The position numbers and the translations under genes are program-made. The notes beneath the pieces are model-generated. The model was not told where the DNA came from and made no database searches. It saw only the letters and a program-made list of their open reading frames with translations. Shown piece by piece: positions 17,650 through 62,945 of a DNA stretch of 64,000 bases. This DNA is from an uncultured Ignavibacteria bacterium (lineage in GTDB: Bacteria > Bacteroidota > Ignavibacteria > SZUA-365), in assembly GCA_913061095.1 (NCBI GenBank), contig CAJXVM010000015.1:8870-72869 (forward strand), read 5' to 3'. Positions within the stretch are counted from its first letter, which is position 1; each line of letters begins with the position of its first letter.

Positions 17650-17776
17650 CCGCCGGACACTCGCAACTGACGGCAGCGTGTTTCCGGAACGAGCGGTAGC
17701 GCGGTCCAGCATCGGGAGGGAGCGGTCACAATATCCACGAATCGCCAGAACCGACGAATCGCACGAAGAGGATCAC

Positions 17777-24200: not shown

Positions 24201-24275
24201 GTGCAGAGCAGCAAGGGTGAAGGCAGTACGTTTGTGGTCACCTTTCCCGCGGCGGCGGGTGCGGACCGCGTCTAG
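21219..24275 (+). CDS. hybrid sensor histidine kinase: N-terminal receiver, PAS x2–3, GAF, HisKA, HATPase_c
   Basis: REC (VLLIEDHEGE...VMLLDLNLPDSSG...YLVKG). PAS-like regions. HisKA (ANMSHEVRTPLNIILGY). HATPase (DNAVKFT, GIGLGLTLVK, GEGSTFVV). The alternative start at ATG 21279 is equally possible. Confidence 0.85.
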   Translation: MSSHSYRQPGKTVNIVAGALMETVNVLLIEDHEGEARLNQRLLERSHTMEFRFTNRRTLAEAQEALADSAFDVMLLDLNLPDSSGLETYSKLQQHAQRLPVVIISAVADDRLAAEAIRRGAQDYLVKGNITSEIMTRVVRYAMARMEHVRATGDTAGRMSAVAAQATARPEGKDAQADVQHADTASILAASESKYRTLIEHSQDGVFIVRDGIMLFVNRALEEMTGYASDEMIGQPMTEFIAPEDRKAVTDRHMQRMAGEDVTQQYTLSLLHRGGTRRRAMLSVDRIPYEDGHAAMGTVKDITQQERIAYLLRIQHQLALDLAYTNDAEAVYEHMLKAVLRVETIDCAGVHILDPTSGRYHSMASRGVRDVFRDLAGDEEYENGYQRLIRESASVFLSAEELRSMSGLRRLPELGVQCLGLIPVTHAGRVIAALGVCSLTFSECDPIIRQAIESAASYLGGVLARIAAEEALKDSEQLYRAVVDKSHDAIFIYRDDRLLFANERTVELTGYSRDELMQLNAWSLVHPEDRARIQDIARSRSNADLSPIVYEGRVLTKDGTIRAGEFATTIIRYQHEPAALVTVRDITSRKSQEEDLRRSDALLRSSGFAAARFLRTADWESCIGEVLEHYGAAANVCRVLLIQNARDAAGYVRMKQRHVWVRREMRDTLLESIPDGQSYEEAPFRRWAEELGAGRPIASVIDHMPDAEQIILARQNVRSTALIPVFQGEEWWGFLRFDECRMRRTWLRPEIDAMQVGAETLGAAISRKRAEQDLIAERDRAERADSIKQAFIANMSHEVRTPLNIILGYLVLVTELSGAEENEEVHEFVQAIDDASQRLIRTVDSIMNISRFQTEDISLERAPLRFDKLIASCVEKFRHLADEKQIRLEFQNHLGEAELIADEHFLAESIEHLVDNAVKFTARGGVTITLQTGDADSMRLSVADTGIGISSEFMKRMYDPYMQEDIGYDRVYEGIGLGLTLVKLYLEAHGAAIDVQSSKGEGSTFVVTFPAAAGADRV

Positions 24276-46905: not shown

Positions 46906-47796
46906 TCACTCTGCGGGCAGTTCCCAGAGCGGGATGTATCCTACTTCACGGACGATATTCTGCCCGCTGTTGCTGAGGATCCAGTCGACGAACATCTTCA
47001 TCGCACCATCGGGTGGCTCGGCGGCAAACAGGTACAGGTAGCGGGCAATGGGGTAGCTGCCGTTGCGCACATTCTCGGCCGTGGGCTCGACGCCGTCGAC
47101 AGCGATGTGGATGACATCCCTTCCATACGCAAGTCCCCCGTATCCGATTGCCGTGGAATCCGCGCGTACCTCGCGAATGACGGCCGCCGTCGTGGGAACG
47201 CTGGTGGAGCGCTCGGTATAGGAATCCCCCTCGAGAACATGCTCCTCGAAGAACAGAAATGTACCGGAATTGGGCGGACGACTGATCACCCGAATCGGCG
47301 CGTCCGCGCCCCCGACCTCCTTCCAGTCAGTGATCGCGCCGGTAAAAATGCCGCGAAGCTGTGCGAGGCTGAGGTCATCAACGGGATTGTCGGGATGGAG
47401 GTACACGCTGAGCGCATCCTTGGCGGTCAGGATGCTGAGTCCCAGCGATCCGCGTTTCTGCAGCAGCAGCTTCACTTCGGGAGCTCGCAGTGTGCGCGAG
47501 GCGGATGTCAGATCCGTTTCCCCCTCGATCAGTGCGCGGATGCCGGTTTCCGTGCCGCCGCCCTCCACGTACACCGCGATGTCGGGATGCAGTTTCATGA
47601 ACTCCTCGGCCCAGCGGTTGACGAGCCGCAGCATGGTGTCGGATCCCTTGATGCGGATGCTGCGCATCCCCGCGTCCTCGCTTTCCGCACTGCCGCTGCA
47701 GGCTGACAGTGCGAGTGCAATCACCATGGCAGGCAGGATGGATCGGGCAACGGAACGGCGTGCCGGCCGGGAACCGATGCGGGCTGTGACACTCAT
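46906..47796 (-). CDS. pstS: phosphate ABC transporter substrate-binding protein PstS family, lipoprotein
   Basis: PstS blocks (GSDTMLRLVNRWAEEF, VEGGGTETGIRALIEGETD, ISRPPNSGTF). Lipobox LALSAC. The start forms an ATGA overlap with the upstream M28 gene. Confidence 0.8.
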   Translation of the reverse strand: MSVTARIGSRPARRSVARSILPAMVIALALSACSGSAESEDAGMRSIRIKGSDTMLRLVNRWAEEFMKLHPDIAVYVEGGGTETGIRALIEGETDLTSASRTLRAPEVKLLLQKRGSLGLSILTAKDALSVYLHPDNPVDDLSLAQLRGIFTGAITDWKEVGGADAPIRVISRPPNSGTFLFFEEHVLEGDSYTERSTSVPTTAAVIREVRADSTAIGYGGLAYGRDVIHIAVDGVEPTAENVRNGSYPIARYLYLFAAEPPDGAMKMFVDWILSNSGQNIVREVGYIPLWELPAE

Positions 47797-49457
47797 CGTT
47801 CCTCCGCGAGAGATTGAAGACGTGCATTGATATACCGGGCGCCGGTCACCCACTGTGGCGGTTCATAGGTGTTGGCGAGACCGGCGAGGTAGGCCAGCAG
47901 CACGGCGGCGTGCTGCCGCACCGCATCCGGATTGACGGACTGCTGCGGGTCGTCCGAGGGACGGTGATAATGGGTTTTTCCCCATTCGATGAACTGCCGG
48001 AACCCCTGGTCATCGGGCAGATTGCGGTACTGCCGCCCCTCCATGATCAGAATCGACGGGATGCCGACCTGTGCGAAGGCGATCTGGTCGGAGCTCGAAA
48101 ATGCGTCCTGGATATCCACCTCCGGGGGCAGATCCGACACCGCGAGTCCCAGTTCATAGGCAATGCGCAGCAGATGCGTCTGCAGCGTTGAGAATTCCGC
48201 TCCCACCCCGACCACATCATCGAAGGTGTCGATGATGGCAAGTCCGTCGACGTTGAGATTCGCCGTGGTGCGATGCAGCGGAAAGACGGGGTTTCTGCAG
48301 TAGTACTGCGATCCCAGGAGTCCCTTCTCTTCTCCCGTTACAAGGAGAAAGATGATGCTGCGCCGCAGCGTCACATCCGATGCGGCAAGGACGCGCGCCA
48401 GTTCGAGCACTGCCGCCGTGCCGAGCGCGTTGTCGACGAAGCCGTTGTAAATGGAGTCGCCGTTCATTGCCGGACCGCGGCCGAGATGGTCGTAATGCGC
48501 ACTGAGCACGATGTAGGAATCCCTCAGCAGAGGATCCTGGCCCTCGAGCAAGCCGACGACATTCGCAGAGAGAAAATCCCTCTGCCGGAACACACCGGAG
48601 AACCTCGCGCGGGACTGCAGCGGGAAGCTGCGGACCGTGTTCGTCGAATCCATGCGCAGAACATCCTGCAGCGACTGTCCGCTGCCCGCGAACAGGAAAT
48701 CACACAGATCGCGTCGCAGCAGCAGGCTCAGATGACCCGGCACGGTGATCGGCAGCCGCACATCCTCGAACGAGAACATCCGGCGCCAGTCCTGCCAGAT
48801 CAAACCCTGGTCGTCACGCGGCAGGGGAATGGTGATGCTGCCCCGGGCGCCGCGTGAGAGCGCCACGCGCTGCTTCATCTCCGGGATGGAATAGATGGTC
48901 GGCCAGCTGCCGTTGAAGTAATCCGCATCCTGCGAGCGCGGCTCTCCCGAGAGGAAGACCACGATGGCGTCTTCGACATCCATGTTGTAGTAATCGTTAT
49001 AGTCGAATTCGGGCGCGATGATGCCGTATCCCACGAATACCAGGCGCAGAGGCTGGGGGAGAAAGGTCTGCGCGCCGGTCTTGTACAGCACGTAATCCTC
49101 CCACAGTTCAAGCTCGCGCTCGGTACCGTCGTTGATGACGGACAAACGGCTTTCGGGCAGGGGGATGCTGCCGTGCAGGGGGAAGTGCTGAAACCACGTG
49201 GAGTCGTCACCGGCCGGCCGGATGCCGGCGCGCGCCAGTTCGGATGCGATGTAGGCGGCGGCCCCCCGCTCGCCGGCGGTGCCCGTGCCGCGTCCGCCGA
49301 GCGAATCGTGCGCGAGTGCACGCGCATGCCGCAGGAGAGAATCGGCGGAGATCCGCTCCATCGCCGCACGCACGTCGGGGGTGACCAGCCGCTGCTGCGC
49401 CTGGATGGACGCGGCGGTGGTCAACAGGAGGAGCAGTATGGAGAGTGATCTGCGCAT
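47793..49457 (-). CDS. M28 family zinc aminopeptidase, secreted
   Basis: Signal peptide MRRSLSILLLLLTTAASIQA. M28 metal-ligand blocks (SAHYDHLG, GFVDNALGTAAVLELAR, VTGEEKGLLGS). Confidence 0.8.
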   Translation of the reverse strand: MRRSLSILLLLLTTAASIQAQQRLVTPDVRAAMERISADSLLRHARALAHDSLGGRGTGTAGERGAAAYIASELARAGIRPAGDDSTWFQHFPLHGSIPLPESRLSVINDGTERELELWEDYVLYKTGAQTFLPQPLRLVFVGYGIIAPEFDYNDYYNMDVEDAIVVFLSGEPRSQDADYFNGSWPTIYSIPEMKQRVALSRGARGSITIPLPRDDQGLIWQDWRRMFSFEDVRLPITVPGHLSLLLRRDLCDFLFAGSGQSLQDVLRMDSTNTVRSFPLQSRARFSGVFRQRDFLSANVVGLLEGQDPLLRDSYIVLSAHYDHLGRGPAMNGDSIYNGFVDNALGTAAVLELARVLAASDVTLRRSIIFLLVTGEEKGLLGSQYYCRNPVFPLHRTTANLNVDGLAIIDTFDDVVGVGAEFSTLQTHLLRIAYELGLAVSDLPPEVDIQDAFSSSDQIAFAQVGIPSILIMEGRQYRNLPDDQGFRQFIEWGKTHYHRPSDDPQQSVNPDAVRQHAAVLLAYLAGLANTYEPPQWVTGARYINARLQSLAEER

Positions 49458-49585
49458 GCGTGCGTTTCCCGTGAATATACGAAGTGGAGAACGATACCGC
49501 ACGGCGATGTGCGTTCGCAACTGTGTACTAAACCATTCACCCCGCATATTTGTTCTTTTGTACACGGATAAAATGGAGGATTTCA

Positions 49586-49795
49586 ATGACTGAACAGACA
49601 ATCCGAATCCAGGGAATGACCTGCAATCACTGCGTGATGTCCGTTCGCCGCGCCCTCGCCGCAATCGACGCCGTGGAAGTCGAAGACGTGCAGATCGGCA
49701 ATGCCGTTGTGCGCTTCGACGGCTCGGACGAGAAGCGGAAGGAAATTGATGCGGCGATTACAAACGCGGGATACAGCGTCACGGCGCATGAATAG
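49586..49795 (+). CDS. copZ: copper chaperone CopZ (HMA domain)
   Basis: GMTCNHC metal-binding motif. 69 aa. GGAGGA RBS. Confidence 0.85.
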
Positions 49796-52043
49796 GAAAC
49801 TCAGTCTCCCGGTGGAGGGCATGACCTGCGCGAGCTGTGTGCTGCGTGTGGAGAATGCGCTCAAAGACGTGCCCGGCGTTCAGGCGGCGACGGTCAATCT
49901 TGCCTCGAGCAAGGCGAATGTCGAACTGGGAGAGGATGCCGATCTCGACGCAATTCGGGATGCGGTCGGCAGGGCCGGGTACGCGCTTGAACTTCCGTCG
50001 AGCGCCTCCACCGGCACTGTGGATGAACGCGCGGGCGGCGAGGCGCTCGAAGACGTCGCCGGATCTCCGCACGCCGAGGAATTCCGGCGGCTGCGTCGTG
50101 ATCTTATCGCCGCCGCGGCACTGACGCTCCCCGTCATGCTGCTGAGCATGCTGCCGATGATTCCCTCCGTGGCCGCGGCCTGGCCTCTGTCCACACCGGA
50201 TACCAACCGTCTGCTCTTCCTCCTGACAACGCCGGTCCTTCTGTATCCCGGGCGCCGCTTTTTCAGTGCTGCCTGGACCATGCTGCGGCACCGCACGGCC
50301 GACATGAACACGCTGGTCGCCGTAGGTACGGGCGCTGCCTGGCTGTACAGTACCGCCGCCGTGCTGTTCCCGCACTGGCTGGGACTGCAGGAGGGACACA
50401 CCGAAGTGTATTTCGATACATCCGCTACGATCATCACGCTCATTCTTCTGGGACGCATGCTCGAAGCGCGCGCGAAGAACCGCGCCACCGACGCGATCCG
50501 GAAACTGGTCGGACTGCAGCCGCGCACCGCCCGCGTTCGCCGCGACGGTGAGGAATTGGAAATCCCGACACGCGACGTGCGCGAAGGCGATGTCATGCTG
50601 ATCCGTCCGGGAGAGCGTGTGCCGGTTGACGGAACCATCACCGGCGGCAGTTCTTCGGTTGATGAATCGATGATCAGCGGGGAGCCGCTTCCCGTGGCGA
50701 AGGGCGAAGGTGACGCACTCGTCGGCGGTACGGTCAACCAGGAGGGCAGCCTCGTGATCGAAGCCACAGCCGTCGGGGCCGACACCGTGCTCGGTCACAT
50801 CGTGCGCATGGTGGATGAGGCGCAGGGTTCGAAGGCCCCGGTGCAGCGACTGGTGGATAAAATCGCCGCGGTGTTCGTCCCCGCAGTCGTCGCTCTGGCC
50901 ATCCTCACGTTTCTCATCTGGTATTTCGGAGGACAGGCATCCTTCACCGCATCGATGCTGCATTTCATTGCGGTACTCATTATCGCCTGTCCCTGTGCGC
51001 TCGGACTCGCCACACCAGCCGCCATCATGGTGGGCGTGGGTGTCGGTGCGGATCGTGGCATTCTCATCAAGGATGCCGAGAGTCTCGAGCGCGCACGCAG
51101 CGTGGACGCCGTGATCCTCGACAAGACCGGTACTGTAACAGAGGGACGTCCCACCGTCACGGATGTCCTTCCGCTGGGCGACTGCACGCGTGAGCGCCTG
51201 CTCGAGCTGGCTGCCGCTGCGGAATATCCGTCCGAGCACCCGCTCGGCGAGGCCGTGCTGCGCTTTGCGCGCGGGGAGGAATGCGAAATCCGCGAACCGG
51301 AATCCTTCCAGTACGAGCCCGGTGCCGGCGTGACGGCCTTTATCGACGGTGATGCCGTGCAGGTGGGCAATGAGGCGTTGATGGCTTCATACGCCGTGAA
51401 GCTCACGGAAGAAGACGAACGGGTGAGCAAGATGGTGCGGCGCGGCAGCACACTGCTGTATGTCGCGCTCAACGGACGCCTGATCGGTCTGCTCGCCGTC
51501 AGTGATACGGTGCGCGAGACATCGGTGCGTGCCATCGAGGAACTGCATCGTCAGGGAATTGACGTCATCATGCTGACGGGAGACACCGAGGACGCAGCGC
51601 GTGAGATCGCCGGACGCGTGGGGATCGACCGCGTCATAGCGGGTGTGCGTCCTGATCAGAAAGCGGCGGAAGTGCGTCGACTGCAGGAGGAAGGCCGGCG
51701 TGTGGCGATGGTGGGAGACGGCATCAACGATGCGCCGGCACTGGCGCAGGCGGATGTCAGCATCGCCATGGGCAGCGGCACGGATATCGCTATGGAGACA
51801 GCCGACATCACGCTGATGAAAAGTGATCTGCGCGGCGTGCCCGAGGCTATGCGGCTGTCCGGGGCCACGCTGCGCAAAATCAGGCAGAACCTGTTCTGGG
51901 CGTTCATCTACAATGTCATCGGTATCCCGCTGGCCGCGGTCGGTATGCTCAGTCCCATGTTCGCCGCGGCGGCGATGGCCTTCAGCTCCGTGAGCGTCGT
52001 TTCCAATTCTCTCCTCCTCCGGCGTTTCCGCTCCGCCGCATGA
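49788..52043 (+). CDS. copA: copper-translocating P1B-type ATPase
   Basis: N-terminal HMA GMTCASC. CPC motif ([13 protein letters not shown]). DKTGTVT phosphorylation site. GDGINDAP. The start overlaps the copZ stop (ATGAATAG). Confidence 0.9.
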
Positions 52044-52077
52044 GGCTTGCGGAATCCTTCCGTTCTGACATCCCCCC

Positions 52078-52105
52078 GAAAAGAAAGAGCGATCCATCGG
52101 ATCGC
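52078..52105 (-). terminator. candidate terminator for the P-type ATPase gene (GCGATCC-atc-GGATCGC hairpin followed by a T-rich tract on the minus strand)
   Basis: Inverted repeat read directly in the convergent copA/ATPase gap. Confidence 0.35.
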
Positions 52106-52133
52106 CCCATCCCGGTTACGAACAGGATCACGG

Positions 52134-54860
52134 CTATTTCGAATTCCCGGCTGCTGACGCGTCCCATCGCCGGACAAGCAGCTTTTTCAGTTCGATCAGC
52201 AGCACGATGCTCATCGACGTGCCGATGCAGATCAGCCATTCCTGCAGGTTCAGCGGCACGGCGCGCAGCAGTGTGTTGAGTCCGGGCACGTGGATGGCCG
52301 CGGCCTGCAGCGACAGCGAGACGAACATCACGATCAGCAGTGGTTTGTTCGCGAATACGCCGATTTCGAACAGCGAGGAGTGGACGGCGCGGGAATTGTG
52401 GACGTTCCAGATCTGGAACAGCGCGAGTGTCACAAAGGCCATGCTGCGCGCTTTTTCCAGAGGGAAGCCCTGCAGCTCAGGGGCGAGAACGCCGTAGCCG
52501 TAGGTCGCCAGTGCCCACTTGTACACCCCAAGCGTCCCGAGCATCATGATGATGCCCGCGAAGATGATCGTGAACAGCATCTCCTTGGGGACGAGTCCGG
52601 CATTCGGCGGACGCGGCGGACGCTTCATGACGTCGCCATGTTCCTTTTCATACGCCAGCGGGAAGGTGGAAATGCCGTCAGTAACGAGATTGATCCACAG
52701 GAGCTGGGCGGGAAGCAGCGGCAGCGGCATGCCGGCAAGAATGGAGGCAGTCAATGTGAGCACGCCGCCGAAACTGGTACTCAGGATGAAAAGAATGATG
52801 TGGCGCAGGTTGTCGAAAATGACGCGTCCGTAGCGCACCGCGGCGGCGATGGATGCAAAGCTGTTGTCCATCACCACCATGCTCGACGCCTCCTTGGCCA
52901 CGTCCGTTCCGGCGCCCATGGCCACGCCGATGTTGGCCGCCTTGAGTGCGGGCGCGTCGTTGACGCCGTCACCGGTCATGGTGACGATGTGACGGCGCTT
53001 CTGCAGCTGCTTGACGATGCGCAGTTTGTGCATGGGTGAGACGCGCGCGTAGACTTCGGTCATGTCACTGAGTGCGCGCAGGCGTTTGTCACTCAGCTTT
53101 TCCAGTTCCGCGCCGGTGAGGACGTCGATCTGCTCATCGTCGAGGCGCAGCTCTTCGGCGATGGCCCTGGCCGTTTCGCGGTGATCACCGGTGATCATGA
53201 TCACCTTGATACCCGCCGTCTTGCACGCGGCGATCGCCTGTTTCGCGGCTTCGCGCGGAGGATCGTACATGCCCTGCAGTCCGGCAAACACACAGCCGTG
53301 GTACACACTGTCGTCCGTGACTTTTTCGTCTTCACCGAGCTCCTTCCAGGCGAACGCGATCACGCGCAGGGCCTTCGACGAGAGGTCTGCGACGCGGTCC
53401 TTCACCCGCTTTTCATCGAGACCGGTGATGCCGTCGGCGGTCTGCATGCGGTCGCACATGGCGAGAATGCGCTCGGTGGATCCCTTGACCAGCAGGAGTT
53501 TTTTTCCGTCCTCGCGCACCGTGACGGCCATGTACTGCAGCTCCGATTCAAAGGGACGGATGTTCACGATCGGATGATTGTCACGCAGCTCCCGCAGGTT
53601 CCACCCGGCCTTTCCGGCGCTGGCGAGCAGGGCGCCCTCGGTGGGATCGCCCACGAGCTTCACTTCGCCGTTTCGGCGCTCCAGGCGTGACTCGGTGCAG
53701 AGCGCGCCGATCAGAAGCGTGCGGCCCAGCGCACTGTCCGGCGCGGGACGCTCCACGCGATAATCCCCCAGAGTGATTTCACCCTCGGTTGCGTAACCGA
53801 GTCCGCTCACCGTGTACACGCTGTCGGCCGCCACGATGCGTGTGACCGTCATGGCGTTTTCGGTCAGCGTGCCGGTTTTATCGGTGCAGATTACGGTGGT
53901 GCTGCCGAGTGTCTCGACCGCGGCGAGCTTGCGGATGATGGCGTTTTTCTTTGCCATGGCGTACACGCCGATCGACAGCGCGACGGTAACGGAGACGGGG
54001 AGTCCCTCGGGGATCGCGGAGACCGCGAGTCCCACAGCCGTGAGGAACATCTGCAGGAGGGAATTGCCCTGCAGCCATCCAGCCAGAAAGATGATGCCGA
54101 TGGCGATGCCGATGGCCATGCTGAGCTTCTTGCCGAATTTTTCCAGCCGTTGCTGAAGGGGAGACATGGTCTCTTCGGCCTCGATGATATTGCGCGTAAT
54201 CTGGCCGAGTTCGGTGTGCGTGCCGACAGCCACAACGATGCCCTTGCCGCGTCCCCGCTGCACGACCGTGCCGGAGTAAATCATGTTGAGGCGGTCGCCG
54301 AGCGCGGCGTCCTCCTCGATATCCACCTCGGCCCGCTTGGTGACGGGCAGGCTCTCGCCGGTGAGCATGGACTCATCGATCACCAGCTCCTGCGTTTCGA
54401 TCAGCCGGATGTCGGCGGGTACCTTGGTGCCGGATTCCACGTACACGATATCGCCGCAGACGAGCTCGGTTGAGGAGAGGGTCTCCTGTGTACCGTCGCG
54501 AAACACGCGGGCGGACGGGGAGGTCAGGTCCTTGAGCGCGCGCAGAGCCGCCTCGGCTTTTGTCTCCTGGTAGTATCCGATCAGGGTGTTGACGATGACC
54601 ACGACGAAAATGACGATGGAATCGACCGGATCGGCGAGGATGGCGGTCAGGATTGCCGCCACGAGCAGGATGTATATGATCGGATTGTTGATCTGCTCGA
54701 GCAGGACTTTCCACCACGGTTTGCGTTTTTCTCGCGGCAGTTCGTTCGCGCCATGCTCCTGGCGCGAATGCGCGACCTGTTCCGTATTGAGACCGCTGTC
54801 GAGATCGGATGAGAAGTGCCGGAGGATGTTCTCGGCGGATTGAATATGCCAGTGTGTCAT
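52134..54860 (-). CDS. P2-type cation-transporting ATPase (Ca2+/Mg2+-type, SERCA/PMCA-like)
   Basis: Cation_ATPase_N-like start. CTDKTGTLTEN phosphorylation motif. TGDGVNDAPALK. Ten TM helices. The start is set at the internal ATG 54860 (MTHWH...). Confidence 0.85.
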   Translation of the reverse strand: MTHWHIQSAENILRHFSSDLDSGLNTEQVAHSRQEHGANELPREKRKPWWKVLLEQINNPIIYILLVAAILTAILADPVDSIVIFVVVIVNTLIGYYQETKAEAALRALKDLTSPSARVFRDGTQETLSSTELVCGDIVYVESGTKVPADIRLIETQELVIDESMLTGESLPVTKRAEVDIEEDAALGDRLNMIYSGTVVQRGRGKGIVVAVGTHTELGQITRNIIEAEETMSPLQQRLEKFGKKLSMAIGIAIGIIFLAGWLQGNSLLQMFLTAVGLAVSAIPEGLPVSVTVALSIGVYAMAKKNAIIRKLAAVETLGSTTVICTDKTGTLTENAMTVTRIVAADSVYTVSGLGYATEGEITLGDYRVERPAPDSALGRTLLIGALCTESRLERRNGEVKLVGDPTEGALLASAGKAGWNLRELRDNHPIVNIRPFESELQYMAVTVREDGKKLLLVKGSTERILAMCDRMQTADGITGLDEKRVKDRVADLSSKALRVIAFAWKELGEDEKVTDDSVYHGCVFAGLQGMYDPPREAAKQAIAACKTAGIKVIMITGDHRETARAIAEELRLDDEQIDVLTGAELEKLSDKRLRALSDMTEVYARVSPMHKLRIVKQLQKRRHIVTMTGDGVNDAPALKAANIGVAMGAGTDVAKEASSMVVMDNSFASIAAAVRYGRVIFDNLRHIILFILSTSFGGVLTLTASILAGMPLPLLPAQLLWINLVTDGISTFPLAYEKEHGDVMKRPPRPPNAGLVPKEMLFTIIFAGIIMMLGTLGVYKWALATYGYGVLAPELQGFPLEKARSMAFVTLALFQIWNVHNSRAVHSSLFEIGVFANKPLLIVMFVSLSLQAAAIHVPGLNTLLRAVPLNLQEWLICIGTSMSIVLLIELKKLLVRRWDASAAGNSK

Positions 54861-54976
54861 GCTGTCGCCAAAATTGATACCGCGTACAAAATGCCGGTTT
54901 TTGGTACACGGGCAAAATCCCCCTGCCGCGGGCTTTTCCATTGTCGCAAGTGCGGACGTTCGGTTATATTCCGTTG

Positions 54977-55759
54977 ATGGATGTTTCGGCTACAATACGA
55001 ACACTGTTGCAGCGGCTTGCCGACGGCGAACTTACGCCTGAGCAGTGCGGCGACCAACTTTCGTCTCTGCAGAGTACTCATCTGCACGTCGGGGATTTCG
55101 CCCGGCTCGATCTCAACCGGCGCGAACGCACGGGCTTTCCCGAAGTGGTATACGCCCCCGGCAAGGCGGAAGAGGAACTGCGCGGCATTGTCACCTCGCT
55201 CATCGAACACGGGCGGTATAACATCCTGGTTTCGCGCCTTGAGAATACGCTCTATGAAGCACTGTGTGATGACACCGTGGCGTCACGCTACTACGTTCGG
55301 TCATCCACGGCCGTGTTCGCCATGCGTCCCCCGGACAGTGGCAGCGGACGCGTGGCCATCGTGACGGCGGGCACTTCGGATCTGGCCGTTGCGGAAGAGG
55401 CCGAGCTGGCCTGCATTTACGCCGGAACGACCGTGGAGCGTTTCGCCGACGTCGGGGTCGCGGGCATCGACCGCCTGCTGGAAGTACTGCCCGACATCGC
55501 GCGAAGCAACGTGTGCATCTGCGTTGCGGGCATGGAGGCGGCGCTGCCGTCAGTGCTGGCCGGGCTGCTGCCCATCCCGGTGATCGGCGTACCGACCTCC
55601 GTCGGGTACGGTGTGAACGAAGGCGGCGTCAACGCGCTGCTCTCTATGCTCGGCAGCTGTGCACCGGGCGTGCTCACGGTCAACATCGACAACGGTATCG
55701 GCGCCGCCGCGGCGGCGCACCGTATCAACAAGCTGCTCGAACGACGCCGTCATGAATGA
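54977..55759 (+). CDS. larB: LarB-like protein (PurE-fold nicotinate-ribotide C5 carboxylase/hydrolase of nickel-pincer cofactor biosynthesis)
   Basis: N-terminal IRTLLQRLADGELTPEQ segment followed by a PurE-like core (VAIVTAGTSDLAVAEEA...VCICVAGMEAALPSVLAGLL...VIGVPTSVGYG). The alternative start at 54941 adds 12 aa. Confidence 0.65.
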   Translation: MDVSATIRTLLQRLADGELTPEQCGDQLSSLQSTHLHVGDFARLDLNRRERTGFPEVVYAPGKAEEELRGIVTSLIEHGRYNILVSRLENTLYEALCDDTVASRYYVRSSTAVFAMRPPDSGSGRVAIVTAGTSDLAVAEEAELACIYAGTTVERFADVGVAGIDRLLEVLPDIARSNVCICVAGMEAALPSVLAGLLPIPVIGVPTSVGYGVNEGGVNALLSMLGSCAPGVLTVNIDNGIGAAAAAHRINKLLERRRHE

Positions 55760-56609
55760 CACCCGCATCACGTATGAATCCCTTCTGAGTGATATTGCCG
55801 CGCTCGGCACGCGGGACGGTGTCAATCTCATCGCGTTTTCCGGCGGTGTGGACAGCAGCCTCGTCGCCAGAGCGGTATTCGATGTCTTCCCGGAAAACAG
55901 CGAAGCCGTCATGGCACTTTCTCCGTCCGTTTCGCGGGCGATGCGGGAGCAGGCGGCAACCATAGCGGCACTGATCGGCATTCCCCTGCGCACCGTGCAG
56001 ACCGCTGAGCATCGCGATCCCACATACATCGCCAACGATGGCATGAGCTGCTACATCTGCAAGACACACATCTACGCGGCGATGATCGCGGTGGAGGAAG
56101 ATGCGGAGCGGCGGCCGGGCCGTGTGGTTCTCTTCAGCGGCAACAACGCTGAAGACATGCAGGATCCAACGCGCGTCGGCATCCGGGCCGCGCGCGAACA
56201 TGCCGTGTGCAGTCCGCTCGAGCGGTTCAGCAAAGCGGACGTGCGCGCGCTTTCGCGCCATGCCGGACTCCCGAACTGGCAGGCGGCTGCGAGCCCCTGC
56301 CTGCGATCCCGTCTCCAGGCCGGGGTTCCCGCAACCGCGGAGCATCTGCACCGCATCGAAGAGGCGGAGAAGCGTCTGCGGCTGCTGTTCGGTCTGGCGG
56401 AGGACGTGAATTTCCGTGTGCGCCAGCTGCCCGGTGACGAAGCCATGGTGGAAATCGACGCGCCGCTGCTCGAGCGCATCGATCTTGCACACTGCCGTGA
56501 TCTGCTTCTGCCGCTCGGCTTCGCGGCGGTCGGGAAACGTGCATTCCGTTCCGGCAGCGTGAGCACCGTGCCTCCCGAGTCATCTCCCCAGCAGGCATCA
56601 TCCTCATGA
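55752..56609 (+). CDS. larE: LarE-like PP-loop ATP pyrophosphatase (sacrificial sulfur transferase family)
   Basis: PP-loop SGGVDSS. A conserved Cys in ASPCLRSR. Translationally coupled to the LarB-like gene (8-nt overlap). Confidence 0.7.
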   Translation: MNDTRITYESLLSDIAALGTRDGVNLIAFSGGVDSSLVARAVFDVFPENSEAVMALSPSVSRAMREQAATIAALIGIPLRTVQTAEHRDPTYIANDGMSCYICKTHIYAAMIAVEEDAERRPGRVVLFSGNNAEDMQDPTRVGIRAAREHAVCSPLERFSKADVRALSRHAGLPNWQAAASPCLRSRLQAGVPATAEHLHRIEEAEKRLRLLFGLAEDVNFRVRQLPGDEAMVEIDAPLLERIDLAHCRDLLLPLGFAAVGKRAFRSGSVSTVPPESSPQQASSS

Positions 56610-57586
56610 ATCTTTCATTGCTGCTCGCACAGAAGGATATCTGCATACTCGACGGTGCGATGGGCACGGAACTGCATCGGCAGGGCGTTGACATCGGTTT
56701 GCCGCTGTGGTCGGCAAATGCCCTCATCCGCGCACCACATACCGTCCGCAACGTGCACTTTGCGTATCTGAATGCCGGTGCCGACATCCTGACAACGAAT
56801 ACCTTCCGCACGAATATCCGCGTGCTGAAGCGTGCCGGATTCAGCGACCGCTCTGAGGAACTCAACCTGCGCGCGATGGAACTGGCCTTCGAGGCGCGTG
56901 AGCGCTATCGTCCCGCCCGGCCCGTGCTGATCGCGGGCGGACTCGCTCCGGTGGAGGACAGCTACAGTCCCGAACTGGTACCCTCCGCCGCGGAACTGCG
57001 CGAGGAACACGGCAGGCAGGCGGAACTGCTCGCCATGTTCGGCGCGGACATCCTGCTCGCCGAGACACTGATGACCATTCGTGAAGCGGAAGCGGCCGCG
57101 GCGGCATGCGCTGCGACGGGGAAGGAATACGCGGTCAGTTTCGTCTGCCGCTCCGACGGCACCCTGCTGTCGGGTGAGCCGCTCGAGGAAGCGGTCGCGG
57201 CTGTTCGCGTGCACGGTCCTGCCGCGCTGCTCGTGAACTGCACCTCTGCCCAGGACATTGCCGTGGCGCATCGCGCACTGCGCGGCGCGGGATTCGGCGT
57301 CACCGGCTGTTACGCCAACACCGGCACGCCGAAAAAAGGCGAGCACGTTCAGACACAGCATGATGTCACTCCGGAGGAATTCGCCGATCATTCGCAGGAA
57401 TGGGTTACCGACGGCGCACGCATTGTCGGCGGCTGCTGCGGCACGACTCCGGAGCATATCGAACTGCTTACGCGCCTGCATGCACCCGGCACACTTCGTT
57501 TCCAGGACGAGGAAATCGCCGCATGGAAAGACGCTCGTGCCCGCCGATGGCAGAATATTCATTCGAAACAGAATCCGGATCTATGA
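56606..57586 (+). CDS. homocysteine S-methyltransferase-family (Pfam S-methyl_trans) zinc thiol methyltransferase
   Basis: [10 protein letters not shown] start. Cys ligands in ...LLVNCTS... and [11 protein letters not shown]. 4-nt overlap with the upstream gene. Confidence 0.8.
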
Positions 57587-59250
57587 AACTCTCCGCTCAC
57601 CTTCGGTACCTTTTTGTCATGCTGCTGTGCAGCCTGCCGCTGCGGGATGCAGCGGCGCAGGTGAAAGAGGCTCCCCCCGTCACGCCGCGCACATGGATTC
57701 TGACGCTCGAGGGCGCGGCCACCAAATTGCTGGACGACTTTTCCGACACGCGTTTTTCCAACGGCGGCGGTTTCTCGCTGCGGCATCATCTCCGCGATCT
57801 CGGCCACGGCCGCGGCGCGCTGTACCTGCGCGGCGGAATCGGTTTCTACGATCTGCAGTGGAAAGCGGATGGCAGGATGGTACGGTATTTCGACACGGCG
57901 ACGGTCGGACTCAACGACGTCAACCGCAGCTTTGTCATGCCGTTTTTCGCTGAAGTGCTGTGGCGTGCGCACATCGGCACGGAGGCGGAGCTCTTTCTCG
58001 GGGGTGGCCTCGAACTGACGTATTATTCGCCGATGAACCGCAACGGGGACGGCCTGCCGAAACCGCAGAACGATTACGGCAAATGGACCGCCGGCATCCC
58101 GCTTACGGCCATGTTCGACTACATGCTCACGGATCATTTTTCGCTGACTTTCCACGCGACCCTCCATCCCACCTTCACCGATTATCTCGACGGATTCTCC
58201 GCCGGCGACTGGGCAGATTCCTACCTTACAGCCGGCATCGGGTTCACCTACGCCTTTCCCGAACCGGACCGCGATCGTGATTTTGACGGACTGCTCGACA
58301 GGGAGGAGCGGGATTTCTATCGCAGCGACCCGCACAATGACGATACGGACGGCGACGGACTGCGCGACGGCGATGAAGTTCGAATCGGCACCGCGCCGCT
58401 GTTTGCCGATACCGACGGTGACGGCATCCGCGATGGTGAGGAGGTGCACCACTACGGCAGTGATCCGCTGAAAAAGGATACGGATGACGACGGACTTTCG
58501 GACAGTGAGGAGGCGATACACGGCACCAGCCTGACACGAAGCGACAGCGACGGCGACGGCCTCAGCGACAGCGTCGAACTGGCGCATGGCACGGATCCAC
58601 AGCATGTCGATACCGACGGCGACGGCCTGCCAGACGGACTCGAGAATCGCTCAAGTCCGCTGATTCCCGATACCGACGGCGACGGCCTTTCGGATGCCGA
58701 GGAGTCGGCGTGGGGGCTGCGTGCCTTCGACGAGGACTTCGATGCGGACGGGCTTTTCGACCGGGCGGAGATCCACTACGGCACCGATCCGAAAAAGCCG
58801 GATACGGACAGTGACGGAGCGACGGACTACAGCGAGATCTTCGAGCTCATGACAGACCCGCGCAATCCCGACAGCGACGGCGACGGCACGCCTGACGGCA
58901 CGGATCCGACACCGGTCGATCGTTCCTCCTTCAATCCGGCGCAACGCATGACCTGGGCCTTTCTCGAGCTGTTTGTGCGCGAGAACGCGGTAGATGAGAG
59001 CTCGAAATCATTCATCCAGATGCTGCACCTGATACGCAGCGCGCCGCGCCAGCAGGTGTTCGAGATCGAGATCGAGATCTACGGCCGCGACATGGCCGAG
59101 GCGCGCAACCGGCGCAGCGAACTCGAAGATTTCCTGCGGAAAATGACGGGCAGCTGGGATGTTCCGCACATCACGCTGTTCGAAAGCGTGGAGAACACAT
59201 TTTACGATGCGCGTCTGCGGTACATCTGGAATAACGGTCTGTCGCGGTAA
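57583..59250 (+). CDS. outer-membrane protein with an N-terminal beta-barrel-like domain and 8–9 thrombospondin type-3 (Ca2+-binding) repeats
   Basis: Signal peptide. Repeated D-x-D-x-D-G-x-x-D blocks ([60 protein letters not shown]...). A C-terminal ~90 aa domain of unclear affinity. Confidence 0.7.
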
Positions 59251-59348
59251 GCGCGCTGGGGAGGGAAGAAGGCCCTGCTGTCAGGGCGGGTGTGAGGGAT
59301 GCGGAGGTAGGTTGGGTGAAACGGGAAGGAACGCCCGGGGTGACAGGA

Positions 59349-61934
59349 TTATTTCGAATGCGGCATGGCATACTTGACGACGACGGCCGTGGCGTCGTCG
59401 CGGCGCTCGGTGCTGCCCGAGAATTCCGACATCGCCTCGAACAGCGCCTGGAGGATATCCTGCGCGCTGCCCCCGGCGTGCCGCGCAAACCGCTCGATCA
59501 ATCCGTCGAGCTCGAAAAGCTCTCCCTTCTCATTCATCGCTTCGGTGAAGCCGTCGGACACGAGCACGAACACATCTCCCGCGCGCACGAAAATCGTTTC
59601 CTCTTCGAGCGACTCCGCGAACGCGTGCCGGTCGAGACCGATGCCCAGTCCCCGCGGCTGATGCAGCGTGACCTCGCGGCTCAGCGCGTTGTAGTGAATC
59701 AGCGGGAGGTGTCCGGCGCGCAGAAATCCGACTTCGTTTTTCAGCAGATCCACGCGCAGGGCGGCCATGGTGAGGTAGCTCTGTTTTTCGACGTGATCGA
59801 AGATCTGTGTGTTCAGACGCACGAACATCTCCCAGAGCGATGGCTGATACGACTCGATGGTTTTGATGATGCCCTGAATGCGCGCGAGATACATCGCCGC
59901 CGACGTGCCCTTGCCTGAGACATCGCCCAGGATGAAGGTCGTGGAATCGTGCCGCGGGAGGAATTCATAGAAATCCCCTCCGACCTCATGCGCGGGGAGC
60001 GAGTGTGCGGCGACGTCGATGCCGGGAAGGTCCGGGATTTCGGACGGCAGCGAGGCCAGCTGAATACGGCGCGCGATTTCCAGTTCCTTCCGCATGCGTT
60101 CTTTCTCGCGCGCGCTTTCGTAATATCCCATCGTGGTCAGCGCGTCGGAGATGTTGATGGCGAGATTTTCGAGCAGTTCAATGTCTTCGCGCGTATAGTT
60201 CGTTTCCGCCTGCTTCTCGCCGAGCAGGAGCAGGGCTTCGAGATTGCCGCTGCTGCGAACGGCGGTGAGGAATTCCACGTCCTGCTCCCTGAATCGTTCG
60301 CGCAGGGGAAGATTGTCTGCAGCCGCCGTCACACTTCGTTCGAAGGTCGGCGCGAGCACGCGGATATCCTCCTCTCCGAGCACCATCGCATCGGAGTGTG
60401 TCCTTGCGCGATTGTCGGCGAGTGGGAGGAAGCGGCCGTTGCTGCGGCTGAGAAACGACGCGCTCTTCACGTGCATGATCGCGACGACATCGCGCACGAC
60501 TTCCTCCGCAAGGCTCAACCGGTCGGTGTGACGGTGGGAAAGTTCGCTGAAGGATTTCAGCGCCTGCTTGTAATCGTAAGTGCCGCGGTAGAAGCGTTCG
60601 TCGAGCAGTGCGCGTACGCGGCGATGCAGCCACCAGAGGGAGGCCAGCAGTCCCGCCCCGATCAGGAAAAACAGCCGTCTCTCGAATTCATCCTGCCGCT
60701 TCTCGCCGAGCGCGCGCAGCTGCATGATCTCCACCTGCTCGGTAGTGATGTTGACGACGGGAAGATCAAGCTTTTTCGAGGGGAGCAGGATGAGGAGCAC
60801 GAAAAAGATGATCACGACCGCGGCCGCGAGCGCAATGCTGAAAATCGTGTACAGGGATCCGCGGCGGACCACGATGTACAGATCGAAGATGCGCTGGCGG
60901 ATGACAGTCAGAAACAGCAGACCGGGAATGGCCGTCCCGGCGAAAAACACCATCTGCCAGGCACCGTACGAGGATATCGCCGCCGTTCCGCCGATGAAAA
61001 CGATCCCGAGCACGATGGCCGCGATCGTCAGCCGGTTCCGCTCCCGCCACGCGACGCTTTCCGCGTTTTTCAGATTCCGTGCGATGATGATCTGCACCGC
61101 CGTAATGACGGCAAAGAAAATCAGATACAGCCAGAACGCCCACAGATGCTGTATGCCCGAGAAGAAGAGGATCATGCGCATCAGCAGATAGGTGCCGAGC
61201 GGTGCGACCCAGATGAGGATGATATATGGCTGCGGCACCGGCTTGACAAAACGCGGAACGGGGAAGTAGAGAAACAGATGCATGAATGCCGACAGCGTGA
61301 CCGCCCACAAGGGGACGTTCAGCAGCGTCATCGCGACGGTCAGGCCGTCCGGATAATGGGCGAAGGAGATGTCCTTTGTGAGCAGCAGTACGGCACCCGC
61401 GAGCAGATGCGCCCACCCGAAGAGCCGCGCCACGGGATACTGCGGCCGGTTGAGGAATACGTACGCGCCGCTGAGGAGAAACGCGAGTGCCGTGAGTGCG
61501 AGCGCGATATAGAACAGGGGGAAGCCGAAGTCCGCCGTCACGACGCTGCGTGTCATTTCCTCGCCGTCGCGGAGGATGGTGTACTCAAGTGTCTCACCGC
61601 CCGATCCCTGAACGAGATAGTCGTTTGCGTCGAACTTGTTCTCGACCGGATTCCCGTTGATCGCGACGATGACATCACCAACCCTGAGCCCGGCACGATC
61701 GGATACACCGCCCTCTGTCACGGCGATGATCGTGACCTTTCCGTCAATGTCATCATAGAGATTCTCGTCGGTCGTGACCGAAGCGAAACGGTAGTTCCAC
61801 ACGGCGCTTACCGTGAGCACAAGCAGCAGTGCCGCAAAGAAGATGATGCGGGCAAGCTGGGGACGGGCGTTATAGAGTTGGAAACCTGTCATGCCAGTGA
61901 TCGAATCTGCGGCAGTATTCGGTGCGGCGGACAA
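59349..61934 (-). CDS. membrane-bound PP2C/SpoIIE-family serine phosphatase with an N-terminal PDZ domain, a 7-8 TM module and a GAF-like linker
   Basis: PDZ (AGLRVGDVIVAINGNPV). Multiple TM helices. C-terminal SpoIIE/PP2C blocks (GGDFYEF...ILGDVSGKG...LVSDGFTEA). Confidence 0.8.
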   Translation of the reverse strand: MSAAPNTAADSITGMTGFQLYNARPQLARIIFFAALLLVLTVSAVWNYRFASVTTDENLYDDIDGKVTIIAVTEGGVSDRAGLRVGDVIVAINGNPVENKFDANDYLVQGSGGETLEYTILRDGEEMTRSVVTADFGFPLFYIALALTALAFLLSGAYVFLNRPQYPVARLFGWAHLLAGAVLLLTKDISFAHYPDGLTVAMTLLNVPLWAVTLSAFMHLFLYFPVPRFVKPVPQPYIILIWVAPLGTYLLMRMILFFSGIQHLWAFWLYLIFFAVITAVQIIIARNLKNAESVAWRERNRLTIAAIVLGIVFIGGTAAISSYGAWQMVFFAGTAIPGLLFLTVIRQRIFDLYIVVRRGSLYTIFSIALAAAVVIIFFVLLILLPSKKLDLPVVNITTEQVEIMQLRALGEKRQDEFERRLFFLIGAGLLASLWWLHRRVRALLDERFYRGTYDYKQALKSFSELSHRHTDRLSLAEEVVRDVVAIMHVKSASFLSRSNGRFLPLADNRARTHSDAMVLGEEDIRVLAPTFERSVTAAADNLPLRERFREQDVEFLTAVRSSGNLEALLLLGEKQAETNYTREDIELLENLAINISDALTTMGYYESAREKERMRKELEIARRIQLASLPSEIPDLPGIDVAAHSLPAHEVGGDFYEFLPRHDSTTFILGDVSGKGTSAAMYLARIQGIIKTIESYQPSLWEMFVRLNTQIFDHVEKQSYLTMAALRVDLLKNEVGFLRAGHLPLIHYNALSREVTLHQPRGLGIGLDRHAFAESLEEETIFVRAGDVFVLVSDGFTEAMNEKGELFELDGLIERFARHAGGSAQDILQALFEAMSEFSGSTERRDDATAVVVKYAMPHSK

Positions 61935-61952
61935 TTTGTTGCATTGCCGGGA

Positions 61953-62945
61953 TCAGTACTGCTGCCGCAGGTGGCGGATGTATTCGTCCTCCATGCGGTG
62001 GAGTGCATCGATGGCATGATGATAACGACGGCGGTCACGCAATTCAAGCGCACGCTCGAATGCCTTTTTCGCTTCGCGGAAATCATGCTGGTACTGCAAG
62101 GTAAGCCCGAGATCATACCAGAGAATGTCCGACTCCGTGCCGGCGTCCTCCCCGTCAGGATGTTCCCTGTCGAGCAGTTCACGGATGACGTCGGTGGCCT
62201 GCGGCCACTGTCCCTGTTCCGCAAGCGCGACAACTCGCTCGAGTTCCGGCCACCGGTCATCGACGAGAAAGGTAACGACCTGGCGGTCCTCGTGTGGTTG
62301 AATCGCTTCAGCGAGTATCGATGCGAAACGCTGCGCCAGATCCCGCGCCGGGATGCTTGGGTCGAGTGCGGGCGGCTCTTCGTTGACCGCGCGCGATTCG
62401 TGCGTGCTCCGGAGCCGCAGCGTGTCCGCGAACGTCACCTCCCTGCGCTCGACGTCGATCAGCAGGATGCGGAACGTGCTGCTCGCCTTTCCTTCGCGTA
62501 CATACTTCGTTCCCCCTGGATCGCGGTTGCTGATGATCTCCGCCTGAAGCACGTCTTCATGGTATGTGCTTTCCATCACGGTGCATGAGAGAATGCAGCG
62601 CGCATCCACCCCGCGTGCGGCGTCTTCTGCCACCGACAGCGCGAGCGTCCCCCGCGGTGTGATAAGCGCGGCCGCGGGGTCGGCCGCGGCGGGAACGAAG
62701 GCTGCGTTTCCCTGCCCCGCGAGCATGGGCAGGAGCATTGCGTCGAGCTCGTCGCGCACGAGCAGACTCAGCGGATCGGTCCCACGCAGGATGTCGACGG
62801 GGAGCAGTGCGACGCGACCACAGCTGTGGATGTCGACGGAGGCCGGCCGCGTCACGGGGACGACAATCGTGCGTGTTCCGCAGGATGCCGTCAGCATCGC
62901 GGAGATGAACAGAAGGATAATTCTATGGAGGCCGAACGGCACCAT
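61953..62945 (-). CDS. hypothetical lipoprotein
   Basis: Signal + lipobox (ISAMLTASCG). No recognisable domains. Sits immediately upstream of the SpoIIE-family gene. Confidence 0.5.
   Translation of the reverse strand: MVPFGLHRIILLFISAMLTASCGTRTIVVPVTRPASVDIHSCGRVALLPVDILRGTDPLSLLVRDELDAMLLPMLAGQGNAAFVPAAADPAAALITPRGTLALSVAEDAARGVDARCILSCTVMESTYHEDVLQAEIISNRDPGGTKYVREGKASSTFRILLIDVERREVTFADTLRLRSTHESRAVNEEPPALDPSIPARDLAQRFASILAEAIQPHEDRQVVTFLVDDRWPELERVVALAEQGQWPQATDVIRELLDREHPDGEDAGTESDILWYDLGLTLQYQHDFREAKKAFERALELRDRRRYHHAIDALHRMEDEYIRHLRQQY

Follow-up and report, generated by a model that had tools for sequence, protein, structure and literature searches.

A larB-larE-methyltransferase-TSP3 operon of an Ignavibacteria lineage: evidence points to lineage-specific gene order over a new methylated cofactor

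Introduction

Does a four-gene block, in which larB and larE are followed by a homocysteine S-methyltransferase (HMT) gene and a gene for an outer-membrane protein, make a methylated relative of the nickel-pincer nucleotide (NPN), or does it join genes of separate function? The block was analysed within a stretch of 64 kb, referred to here as the window. Variants of the nickel-pincer cofactor and enzymes that use them are now being found through gene-neighbourhood mining (NPAD 2025, NphT 2026), and a cluster of larB-larE with a thiol methyltransferase is therefore an attractive lead. The initial annotation had proposed an S-methylated or nickel-free variant of the cofactor for this locus. The evidence points instead to lineage-specific gene order: the block is probably a four-gene operon of one lineage joining two functionally separate pairs, one for synthesis of the NPN precursor and the other containing an unrelated methionine-forming enzyme.

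Results

The features of the locus are given below, with start and stop codons as read from the sequence.

54941..54970, + strand: promoter-like site TTGTCG-18 nt-TATATT (consensus scan, weak)
54977..55759, + strand: larB, ATG to TGA (NF033503 256.6 bits, cutoff 175; PF00731 58.8 bits)
55752..56609, + strand: larE, ATG to TGA, 285 aa, PP-loop ATP-dependent sulfur transferase of the CXXC-C ([4Fe-4S]) type (TIGR00268)
56606..57586, + strand: zinc-dependent HMT family protein, ATG to TGA, 326 aa (PF02574 239 bits)
57583..59250, + strand: secreted outer-membrane protein (TSP3), ATG to TAA, 555 aa (PF18884 133.5 bits, six TSP3_bac repeats)

The genes overlap by 8 bp at larB/larE (55752/55759), 4 bp at larE/HMT (56606/56609) and 4 bp at HMT/TSP3 (57583/57586), as the initial annotation had described. 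The block is flanked by minus-strand genes, a P-type ATPase gene at 52134-54941 and a PDZ-SpoIIE gene downstream, and the transcription unit therefore comprises exactly these four genes; their co-transcription is inferred. The promoter-like site ends 7 nt before the larB ATG, within the 35 bp that separate larB from the divergently oriented ATPase gene, and is the only such site adjoining the block; it is rated weak because the scan found 2 sites against 1.1 expected. No internal terminator-like site was found on the plus strand within the block, and no riboswitch or other RNA family in 52000-62000. Horizontal transfer of the block is unlikely because its GC content (0.61-0.63) is the same as that of the rest of the window.

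The LarB score exceeds the NF033503 equivalog cutoff by 80 bits, while the PurE model TIGR01162 gave only 37.5 bits against a cutoff of 149.6, which excludes a PurE identity. The protein aligns end to end with LarB of L. plantarum at 45% identity over the full length, and its C228 aligns with L. plantarum Cys221 and is invariant in 6/6 aligned sequences. Rankin et al. are said to have identified this Cys221 as the catalytic cysteine in 2021. LarB of the clade is at most 50% identical to any LarB outside it, and at the two nearest outgroup loci larB stands alone within 10 kb on either side, without LarC.

LarE scored 179.5 bits on TIGR00268 against a cutoff of 150, which is a small margin. The NadE, MnmA and NAD-synthase models gave at most 23 bits for this frame, far below their cutoffs, and QueC or ThiI identity was ruled out on profile scores. 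Across 6 clade sequences the motifs S30-G-G-V-D-S35 and C100-Y-I-C103 and the cysteine C183 of SPCLRSR do not vary; PMC9283937 defines CXXC-C as the cysteine motif of LarEs that depend on a [4Fe-4S] cluster. L. plantarum LarE shares with this protein the PP-loop and CXXC-C motifs as well as the columns S186-R187 and R222-V-R224. On TIGR00268 the clade LarEs reach 178-195 bits, whereas L. plantarum LarE scores 328 and other LarEs 300-336; judged by these scores, clade LarE is an unusually divergent member of the family.

The fold of the HMT is presumably a TIM barrel. The PF02574 match spans profile positions 2-280 of 283, and the closest solved relative is E. coli MmuM (PDB 5dml). The score on the MmuM model NF007020 was 176.3 bits, below the cutoff of 215, and the protein is therefore filed as a family member and not as an MmuM orthologue. 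The zinc Cys triad (C212, C277, C278), DGAMGTE and E153-T154 are conserved, and in the alignment to E. coli MmuM the three cysteines fall on its INC and GGCC motifs. About 48 residues, the zinc cysteines included, are at least 95% conserved across 10 lar-linked and 39 unlinked HMTs, the latter from other phyla and without lar neighbours. Changes of the active site relative to homocysteine-using relatives are thus not borne out by the alignment, and the HMT looks isofunctional with its unlinked homologues and like a housekeeping enzyme. The clade is set apart by a C-terminal tail of some 35 residues and by about 9 scattered positions (H45, N49, W83, N87, R100, Y101, L141, A176, C235). The unlinked HMTs have mixed neighbours, MetK and PALP enzymes occurring twice each among them, and none of the 78 GTDB HMT loci outside the clade (HMT identity at most 52%) has LarB or LarE within 10 kb.

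The TSP3 protein is composed of a signal peptide, a PorG-like beta-barrel region (a weak NF052316 match, residues 138-225), six TSP3 calcium-binding repeats and a C-terminal domain, and its orthologues were found only in this lineage. The LarB-like, LarE-like, HMT-family and TSP3 calls of the initial annotation are in accordance with these profile results.

Neither LarC nor LarA turned up in the window, whether in Pfam scans covering every large ORF and the Pfam annotation of the contig, in tblastn searches with the L. plantarum proteins, or when every stop-to-stop ORF was searched with a LarC HMM and, by phmmer, with LarA. Among NPN users, neither LarA (PF09861) nor an AKR was found in the window, and the surroundings of the block encode neither an ornithine cyclodeaminase nor any other candidate for using the cofactor. 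In ten related genomes larC (PF01969) and larA were absent within 10 kb on either side of the block, and larC was absent for every lineage member in the approximately 200 kb examined around it. The local absence claimed in the initial annotation thus stands, both in the window and just outside the block. A 238-aa hypothetical protein encoded upstream of larB at three loci (L089, L172, L175) was considered as a LarC substitute and rejected because it has a signal peptide and the appearance of a small outer-membrane protein, and because the window encodes no homologue of it.

The usual linkage of lar genes was assessed with 80 LarE loci from metagenomes, among the matches listed, which are 32-45% identical to the block LarE; for 21 of them the sequence extends 3 kb or more to either side. 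Among these 21 listed loci larC was present at 2, larB at 1 and LarA at none, and none of the 80 listed loci carries an HMT. Eight stand-alone LarEs are bona fide (300-336 bits on TIGR00268). Scattered lar genes are normal, and a missing larC beside larE is the usual state in the sampled unrelated loci. A proportion of about 15% is given in PMC11796402 for genomes with larB, larC and larE but without larA.

Ten distinct genomes, in which LarB identity falls as low as 52%, carry the complete larB-larE-HMT-TSP3 block, and its junctions there are often overlapping. The lineage consists of Ignavibacteria- or Bacteroidota-labelled genomes from metagenomes. Upstream, the block adjoins an ATPase gene, the gene of the 238-aa hypothetical protein or a TMEM260-like gene, which makes at least three contexts; downstream there are two. 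A block that is kept while its flanks rearrange is conventionally read as functionally coupled, which counts against two unrelated pairs. At one locus, L174, HMT-TSP3 is kept with a 4-bp overlap, but UvrA-TauE lies upstream in place of larB-larE; the downstream order PDZ-SpoIIE, RF-1, DAHP synthase is kept. L174 falls inside the clade, as the clade together with L174 was monophyletic in 200/200 bootstraps and the linked genomes without L174 in only 64/200. The TauE-family gene in front of the L174 HMT is sulfite-exporter-like, and a PLP enzyme of Cys/Met metabolism lies about 8 kb off.

The order of RF-1, DAHP synthase, the SpoIIE phosphatase and the P-type ATPases is equally conserved at three loci (L086, L087, L173). 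Because the order of unrelated genes is kept just as well, synteny in this region carries little functional weight. The association of HMT with larB/larE is confined to one monophyletic lineage and does not recur in the independent lineages sampled. A literature search on larB/larE with HMT, or on P2TMN with a methyltransferase, returned nothing relevant.

Discussion

The operon is best explained as two pairs of separate function. The first pair, larB-larE, would carry out the first two steps of NPN biosynthesis. LarB is predicted to carboxylate nicotinic acid adenine dinucleotide at C5 and to hydrolyse the phosphoanhydride, giving P2CMN; LarE would then adenylylate each carboxylate and swap in sulfur, giving P2TMN, with a cysteine desulfurase as the probable sulfur donor. 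Nickel insertion by LarC and an NPN-using enzyme, either a LarA homologue or one of another fold, are presumed to be supplied by genes in other parts of the genome, which is the usual situation. In the second pair, HMT-TSP3, the HMT would be an ordinary zinc-dependent homocysteine (or selenocysteine) methyltransferase forming methionine from SAM or S-methylmethionine, and its partner would be the outer-membrane calcium-binding repeat protein. The divergent LarE, the HMT that scores below the MmuM cutoff and has a C-terminal extension, and the lack of larC near the block count against such an ordinary reading.

An indirect regulatory link, in which both pairs are co-expressed through sulfur or methionine status and share no substrate, is an outside possibility. 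The reasoning is that LarE uses cysteine-derived sulfur and an Fe-S cluster, whereas the HMT turns homocysteine into methionine. The single promoter-like site, the lack of an internal terminator or riboswitch and the conservation of the block as a unit are consistent with it. So are the TauE-family gene and the distant Cys/Met-metabolism enzyme at L174, and the MetK and PALP enzymes sometimes found beside unlinked HMTs. On the other hand, no regulator or sulfur-responsive element was identified at the block, nothing connects the TSP3 outer-membrane gene with sulfur, and neighbouring unrelated genes are conserved too, so that order alone is uninformative.

Methylation of the LarE product by the HMT is improbable. 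The enzyme would, by zinc activation, S-methylate the thiocarboxylate(s) of PCTMN or P2TMN to an S-methyl thioester nucleotide, with larC dispensable or absent; the product might be a cofactor of a new kind, a version without nickel, or an activated species that is then attached to a protein. Several observations favour it: the conservation of these closely spaced or overlapping genes as a block in ten genomes with differing flanks, the divergence of LarE, the clade-specific substitutions and C-terminal tail of the HMT, and the absence of larC and larA from every examined locus of the lineage. Variants of the pathway's cofactor are also still emerging (NPAD 2025 and NphT 2026, for example), and a lar-HMT link was not found in the literature. 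Against this, the HMT core is the same as in homologues without lar neighbours, L174 keeps HMT-TSP3 without larB-larE upstream, and the pairing was found at 0/80 other LarE loci (among the matches listed) and 0/78 other HMT loci. The missing larC is what the base rate leads one to expect, and a thiocarboxylate is already a good nucleophile, for which activation of the thiol at a zinc site would seem unnecessary. In its full form the proposal has the co-transcribed HMT S-methylate the product of LarB and a divergent [4Fe-4S] LarE, yielding a derivative of the NPN precursor that does not depend on larC, may lack nickel and has a function of its own; this is rated marginally less likely still.

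It is very doubtful that larB-larE serves a non-NPN product (NPAD or another thiocarboxylated pyridinium nucleotide) beside an unrelated HMT: the low LarE score relative to typical LarEs, the at most 50% identity of clade LarB to outside LarBs and the NPAD precedent (Desguin 2025, as cited in PMC13524815) speak for it, but LarB lies 80 bits over its equivalog cutoff, can be aligned with its L. plantarum counterpart over the whole length and keeps the catalytic Cys, LarE shares the PP-loop, CXXC-C, S186-R187 and R222-V-R224 columns with L. plantarum LarE, and the neighbourhood offers no candidate user such as an ornithine cyclodeaminase.

For the initial annotation, the analysis confirmed the family assignments, the coupling of the genes in translation and the lack of larC and larA nearby; the cofactor variant drawn from these points is not supported. 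Absence of a nearby larC is usual, the HMT core is ordinary, the synteny survey found the pairing in one lineage only (0/80 LarE loci, among the matches listed, and 0/78 HMT loci), no independent lineage sampled pairs LarE with HMT, and L174 has HMT-TSP3 with no larB-larE upstream. As a lead, larB-larE-HMT is weak, since a single lineage, in which gene order is conserved in general, accounts for the signal. Because larE and larB usually stand alone in environmental genomes, the absence of larC nearby says little, and neighbourhood-mining pipelines are cautioned that it is poor evidence. A divergent LarE branch and a well-defined test case are of remaining, modest value.

Comparison with known systems

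Relative to the NPN pathway as represented by L. plantarum larABCDE and the [4Fe-4S] LarE of T. maritima, both block proteins score above the NCBI equivalog cutoffs, and the block LarE likewise has the CXXC-C cluster motif of the T. maritima enzyme. As in L. plantarum, larB and larE occur together, here adjacent and translationally coupled, but without larC or larA in the operon or the 64 kb; non-lar genes follow, and LarE reaches about 180 bits as against the typical 300-336.

The block HMT shares with E. coli MmuM/YagD (5dml) the full-length PF02574 domain, the zinc Cys triad, DGxxxTE, the ET motif and a similar size (core of about 300 aa). It differs in scoring under the MmuM cutoff, in its extra tail of about 35 aa, in lacking an adjoining mmuP-like permease and in always having, in this lineage, the TSP3 outer-membrane gene directly after it.

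The clusters of larBCE with NphT aldo-keto reductases (Nat Chem 2026) resemble the block in placing lar genes beside a TIM-barrel gene of another family. The NphT clusters and those of the NPAD ornithine cyclodeaminase (2025) contain larC, whereas the block has none; the neighbour in those clusters carries a His/Lys NPN-binding motif, whereas the block HMT keeps a zinc site identical to that of its unlinked homologues.

Results

Organisation of the four-gene block

The block was read from the sequence as four open reading frames:

54977-55759, plus strand: ORF 1, larB (ATG to TGA)
55752-56609, plus strand: ORF 2, larE (ATG to TGA)
56606-57586, plus strand: ORF 3, homocysteine S-methyltransferase, HMT (ATG to TGA)
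57583-59250, plus strand: ORF 4, TSP3-repeat protein (ATG to TAA)

Stop/start overlaps of 8 bp (larB/larE), 4 bp (larE/HMT) and 4 bp (HMT/TSP3) bear out the chaining of the four genes described in the initial annotation. A P-type cation ATPase gene (52134-54941) adjoins the block on the larB side and a PDZ-SpoIIE phosphatase gene downstream; both lie on the minus strand, so the block forms a self-contained four-gene unit. The consensus scan gave a promoter-like site, TTGTCG-18-TATATT (54941-54970), from which the four genes are probably co-transcribed. Its -10 element ends 7 nt ahead of the larB ATG, and the divergent starts of the ATPase and larB are just 35 bp apart (54942-54976), suggesting that the larB leader is very short or absent and that the promoters lie inside the neighbouring coding regions. 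No terminator-like site was found on the plus strand inside the block by the terminator scan, and no Rfam family was found around it. A GC-rich 6-bp hairpin without T-tract, GCCCTG-ctgt-CAGGGC (59272-59287), lies between convergent genes 22 nt past the TSP3 stop and was not called by the terminator scan.

Family assignment

The profile searches placed all three enzymes above the cutoffs of their proposed families: 256.6 bits on LarB NF033503 (cutoff 175), 179.5 bits on LarE TIGR00268 (cutoff 150) and 239 bits on PF02574 (cutoff 22). The initial annotation had considered that the first two genes might encode a genuine PurE or another PP-loop enzyme. Both identities were ruled out, the larB product scoring 37.5 bits on TIGR01162, far under its cutoff of 149.6, and the larE product at most 23 bits on all remaining PP-loop models.

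The block LarB and L. plantarum LarB could be aligned from end to end (45% identity), and the catalytic cysteine of the latter, Cys221, has its counterpart in the block protein. In the homology search the clade LarB was at most 50% identical to every LarB outside the clade. The block LarE carries the SGGVDS PP-loop together with CYIC and SPCLRSR, which make up the CXXC-C motif. In T. maritima LarE the motif holds a [4Fe-4S] cluster, and the enzyme is thereby catalytic and not sacrificial (PMC9283937). Lineage LarEs scored 178-195 bits on TIGR00268; L. plantarum LarE reached 328 bits, and the range for eight unrelated environmental LarEs was 300-336. Judged by these scores and motifs, the lineage LarE (55752-56609) is a divergent branch with the PP-loop and CXXC-C retained.

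The best solved relative of the HMT was E. coli MmuM. The HMT has intact DGAMGTE and E153-T154 motifs and retains C212, C277 and C278, the zinc cysteines; the score on the MmuM equivalog NF007020 was 176 bits, below the cutoff of 215. Ten HMTs linked to larB-larE and 39 unlinked homologues share about 48 residues at 95% or higher conservation, and only about 9 scattered positions and the C-terminal tail are clade-specific. This extension of about 35 aa (57476-57586, residues about 291-326) is missing from nearly all unlinked homologues. The TSP3 protein matched TSP3_bac PF18884 at 133.5 bits (cutoff 25) over six repeats, with a signal peptide at its start and a weak PorG-like barrel match; no orthologue was found outside the lineage among about 170 loci.

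Conservation of the block

The LarB-LarE-HMT-TSP3 order was found in ten distinct genomes (the window, L006, L007, L086, L087, L089, L172, L173, L175 and L176), with identity down to 52% for LarB and 58% for HMT. Contigs of equal length in the LarB and HMT match lists suggest at least 17 co-located 90%-identity clusters. Upstream of the block lies the ATPase, a TMEM260-like gene or, following FTCD, the gene for a 238-aa hypothetical secreted protein; downstream lies either PDZ-SpoIIE or a Por_Secre_tail protein with GlmS beyond it. In L086, L087 and L173 the entire 20 kb, including RF-1, DAHP synthase and metal ATPases, is collinear with the window, indicating that gene order here is conserved regardless of function.

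Further features of the region were recorded. A 238-239 aa protein, with signal peptide and likely a small beta-barrel, lies directly 5' of larB on the same strand in L089 (7454-8173), L172 (7441-8160) and L175 (5656-6372); it has no Pfam match and no homologue in the window. Between FTCD and larB (46906-54941) the window carries a copper-type HMA chaperone, a P-type ATPase and a second cation ATPase, and this metal-ATPase block has the look of an insertion when set against L175, where the order is FTCD-hypothetical-larB. A CsoR-like PF02583 repressor is present in L086, L087 and L173 and absent from the annotation of the window's contig. Within a 20-kb stretch the window also encodes three large sensor proteins with multiple PAS/GAF domains (4858-7155, 17537-19948, 21219-24275), two of them hybrid histidine kinases with receiver domains.

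The pair of HMT, a cytoplasmic homocysteine methyltransferase, and the outer-membrane TSP3 protein occurs in 11/11 lineage genomes (window 56606-59250; L174 10001-12675; L089 10001-12651), frequently with a 4-bp overlap, and persists also in the genome without larB-larE. In that genome (L174, contig Ga0439198_0000084) HMT-TSP3 overlaps by 4 bp and is followed by PDZ-SpoIIE, RF-1 and DAHP synthase as in the lineage; UvrA-TauE occupies the larB-larE position. The HMT distance tree grouped the clade with L174 in 200/200 bootstraps and paired L174 with the linked genome L176; linked genomes were monophyletic without L174 in only 64/200 replicates. This placement suggests that L174 probably lost or moved larB-larE and kept HMT-TSP3. 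The survey for larB-larE-HMT synteny revealed no pairing outside the lineage: LarB or LarE lay within 10 kb of the HMT homologue (30-52% identity) in 0/78 GTDB loci, whose neighbours were heterogeneous (UvrD four times, MoeA three, MetK and PALP twice each). The stable unit is HMT-TSP3, and larB-larE is a second unit upstream in most, not all, lineage members.

Search for larC and larA

Neither gene was found in the window by Pfam scans of every large ORF (1-45 kb), Pfam annotation of an identical metagenome contig (45-65.7 kb), tblastn with LarA, LarC1 and LarC2 of L. plantarum plasmid NZ_CP055122, or a LarC HMM built from five environmental LarCs together with LarA phmmer on all stop-to-stop ORFs. 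In ten relatives, these checks likewise turned up neither gene in the 10 kb on each flank of the block. The statement that larC and larA are not nearby therefore stands.

The LarE-alignment scan of metagenomes yielded 80 unrelated LarE loci, 32-45% identical to the block LarE, among the matches listed. Among those flanked by 3 kb or more on each side (n=21), LarC was present in 2/21, LarB in 1/21, and LarA or HMT in 0/21. Eight of the isolated LarEs are strong matches (300-336 bits), and the two nearest outgroup LarB genes (L177, L178) have no lar neighbour in the 10 kb on either flank. On environmental contigs both larE and larB are mostly unaccompanied; scattered lar genes are the rule, and local absence of larC is therefore no sign of a larC-less pathway. 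Genomes with larB, larC and larE and no larA make up about 15% (PMC11796402). Pipelines anchored on clustered larBCE would miss most genomes carrying lar genes.

Discussion

From the chemistry of the characterised families, LarB would convert NaAD to P2CMN, and [4Fe-4S] LarE, with ATP and persulfide-derived sulfur, would yield P2TMN. LarC, presumably encoded elsewhere in the genome, would insert nickel, and the finished nickel-pincer nucleotide (NPN) would serve a LarA homologue or other NPN enzyme, also encoded elsewhere. The HMT would separately methylate homocysteine (or selenocysteine) with SAM or S-methylmethionine as donor, and the TSP3 protein may be structural or Ca-binding in the outer membrane. 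This proposal as a whole, co-transcription included, is considered quite likely.

The initial annotation was right on families, overlaps and local larC/larA absence; the S-methylated cofactor variant drawn from them was not supported. Direct action of the HMT on P2TMN would fit a block that outlasts flank rearrangements, the divergence of the clade LarE and LarB, the sub-cutoff MmuM score and private tail of the HMT, and the lack of larC in the 64-kb window and within 10 kb either side in ten relatives. In the literature searched, no paper joined lar genes to HMT or described methylated P2TMN, and new pincer-cofactor variants are still appearing (NPAD 2025, as cited in PMC13524815; NphT 2026). 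However, unrelated genes keep their order equally in the collinear relatives, L174 has UvrA-TauE upstream of HMT-TSP3, the 78 outside HMT loci lack LarB and LarE, and linked and unlinked HMTs have a common core, which together make such a link highly improbable. The genes of the block add new members to families already known, and their arrangement is undescribed but probably incidental.
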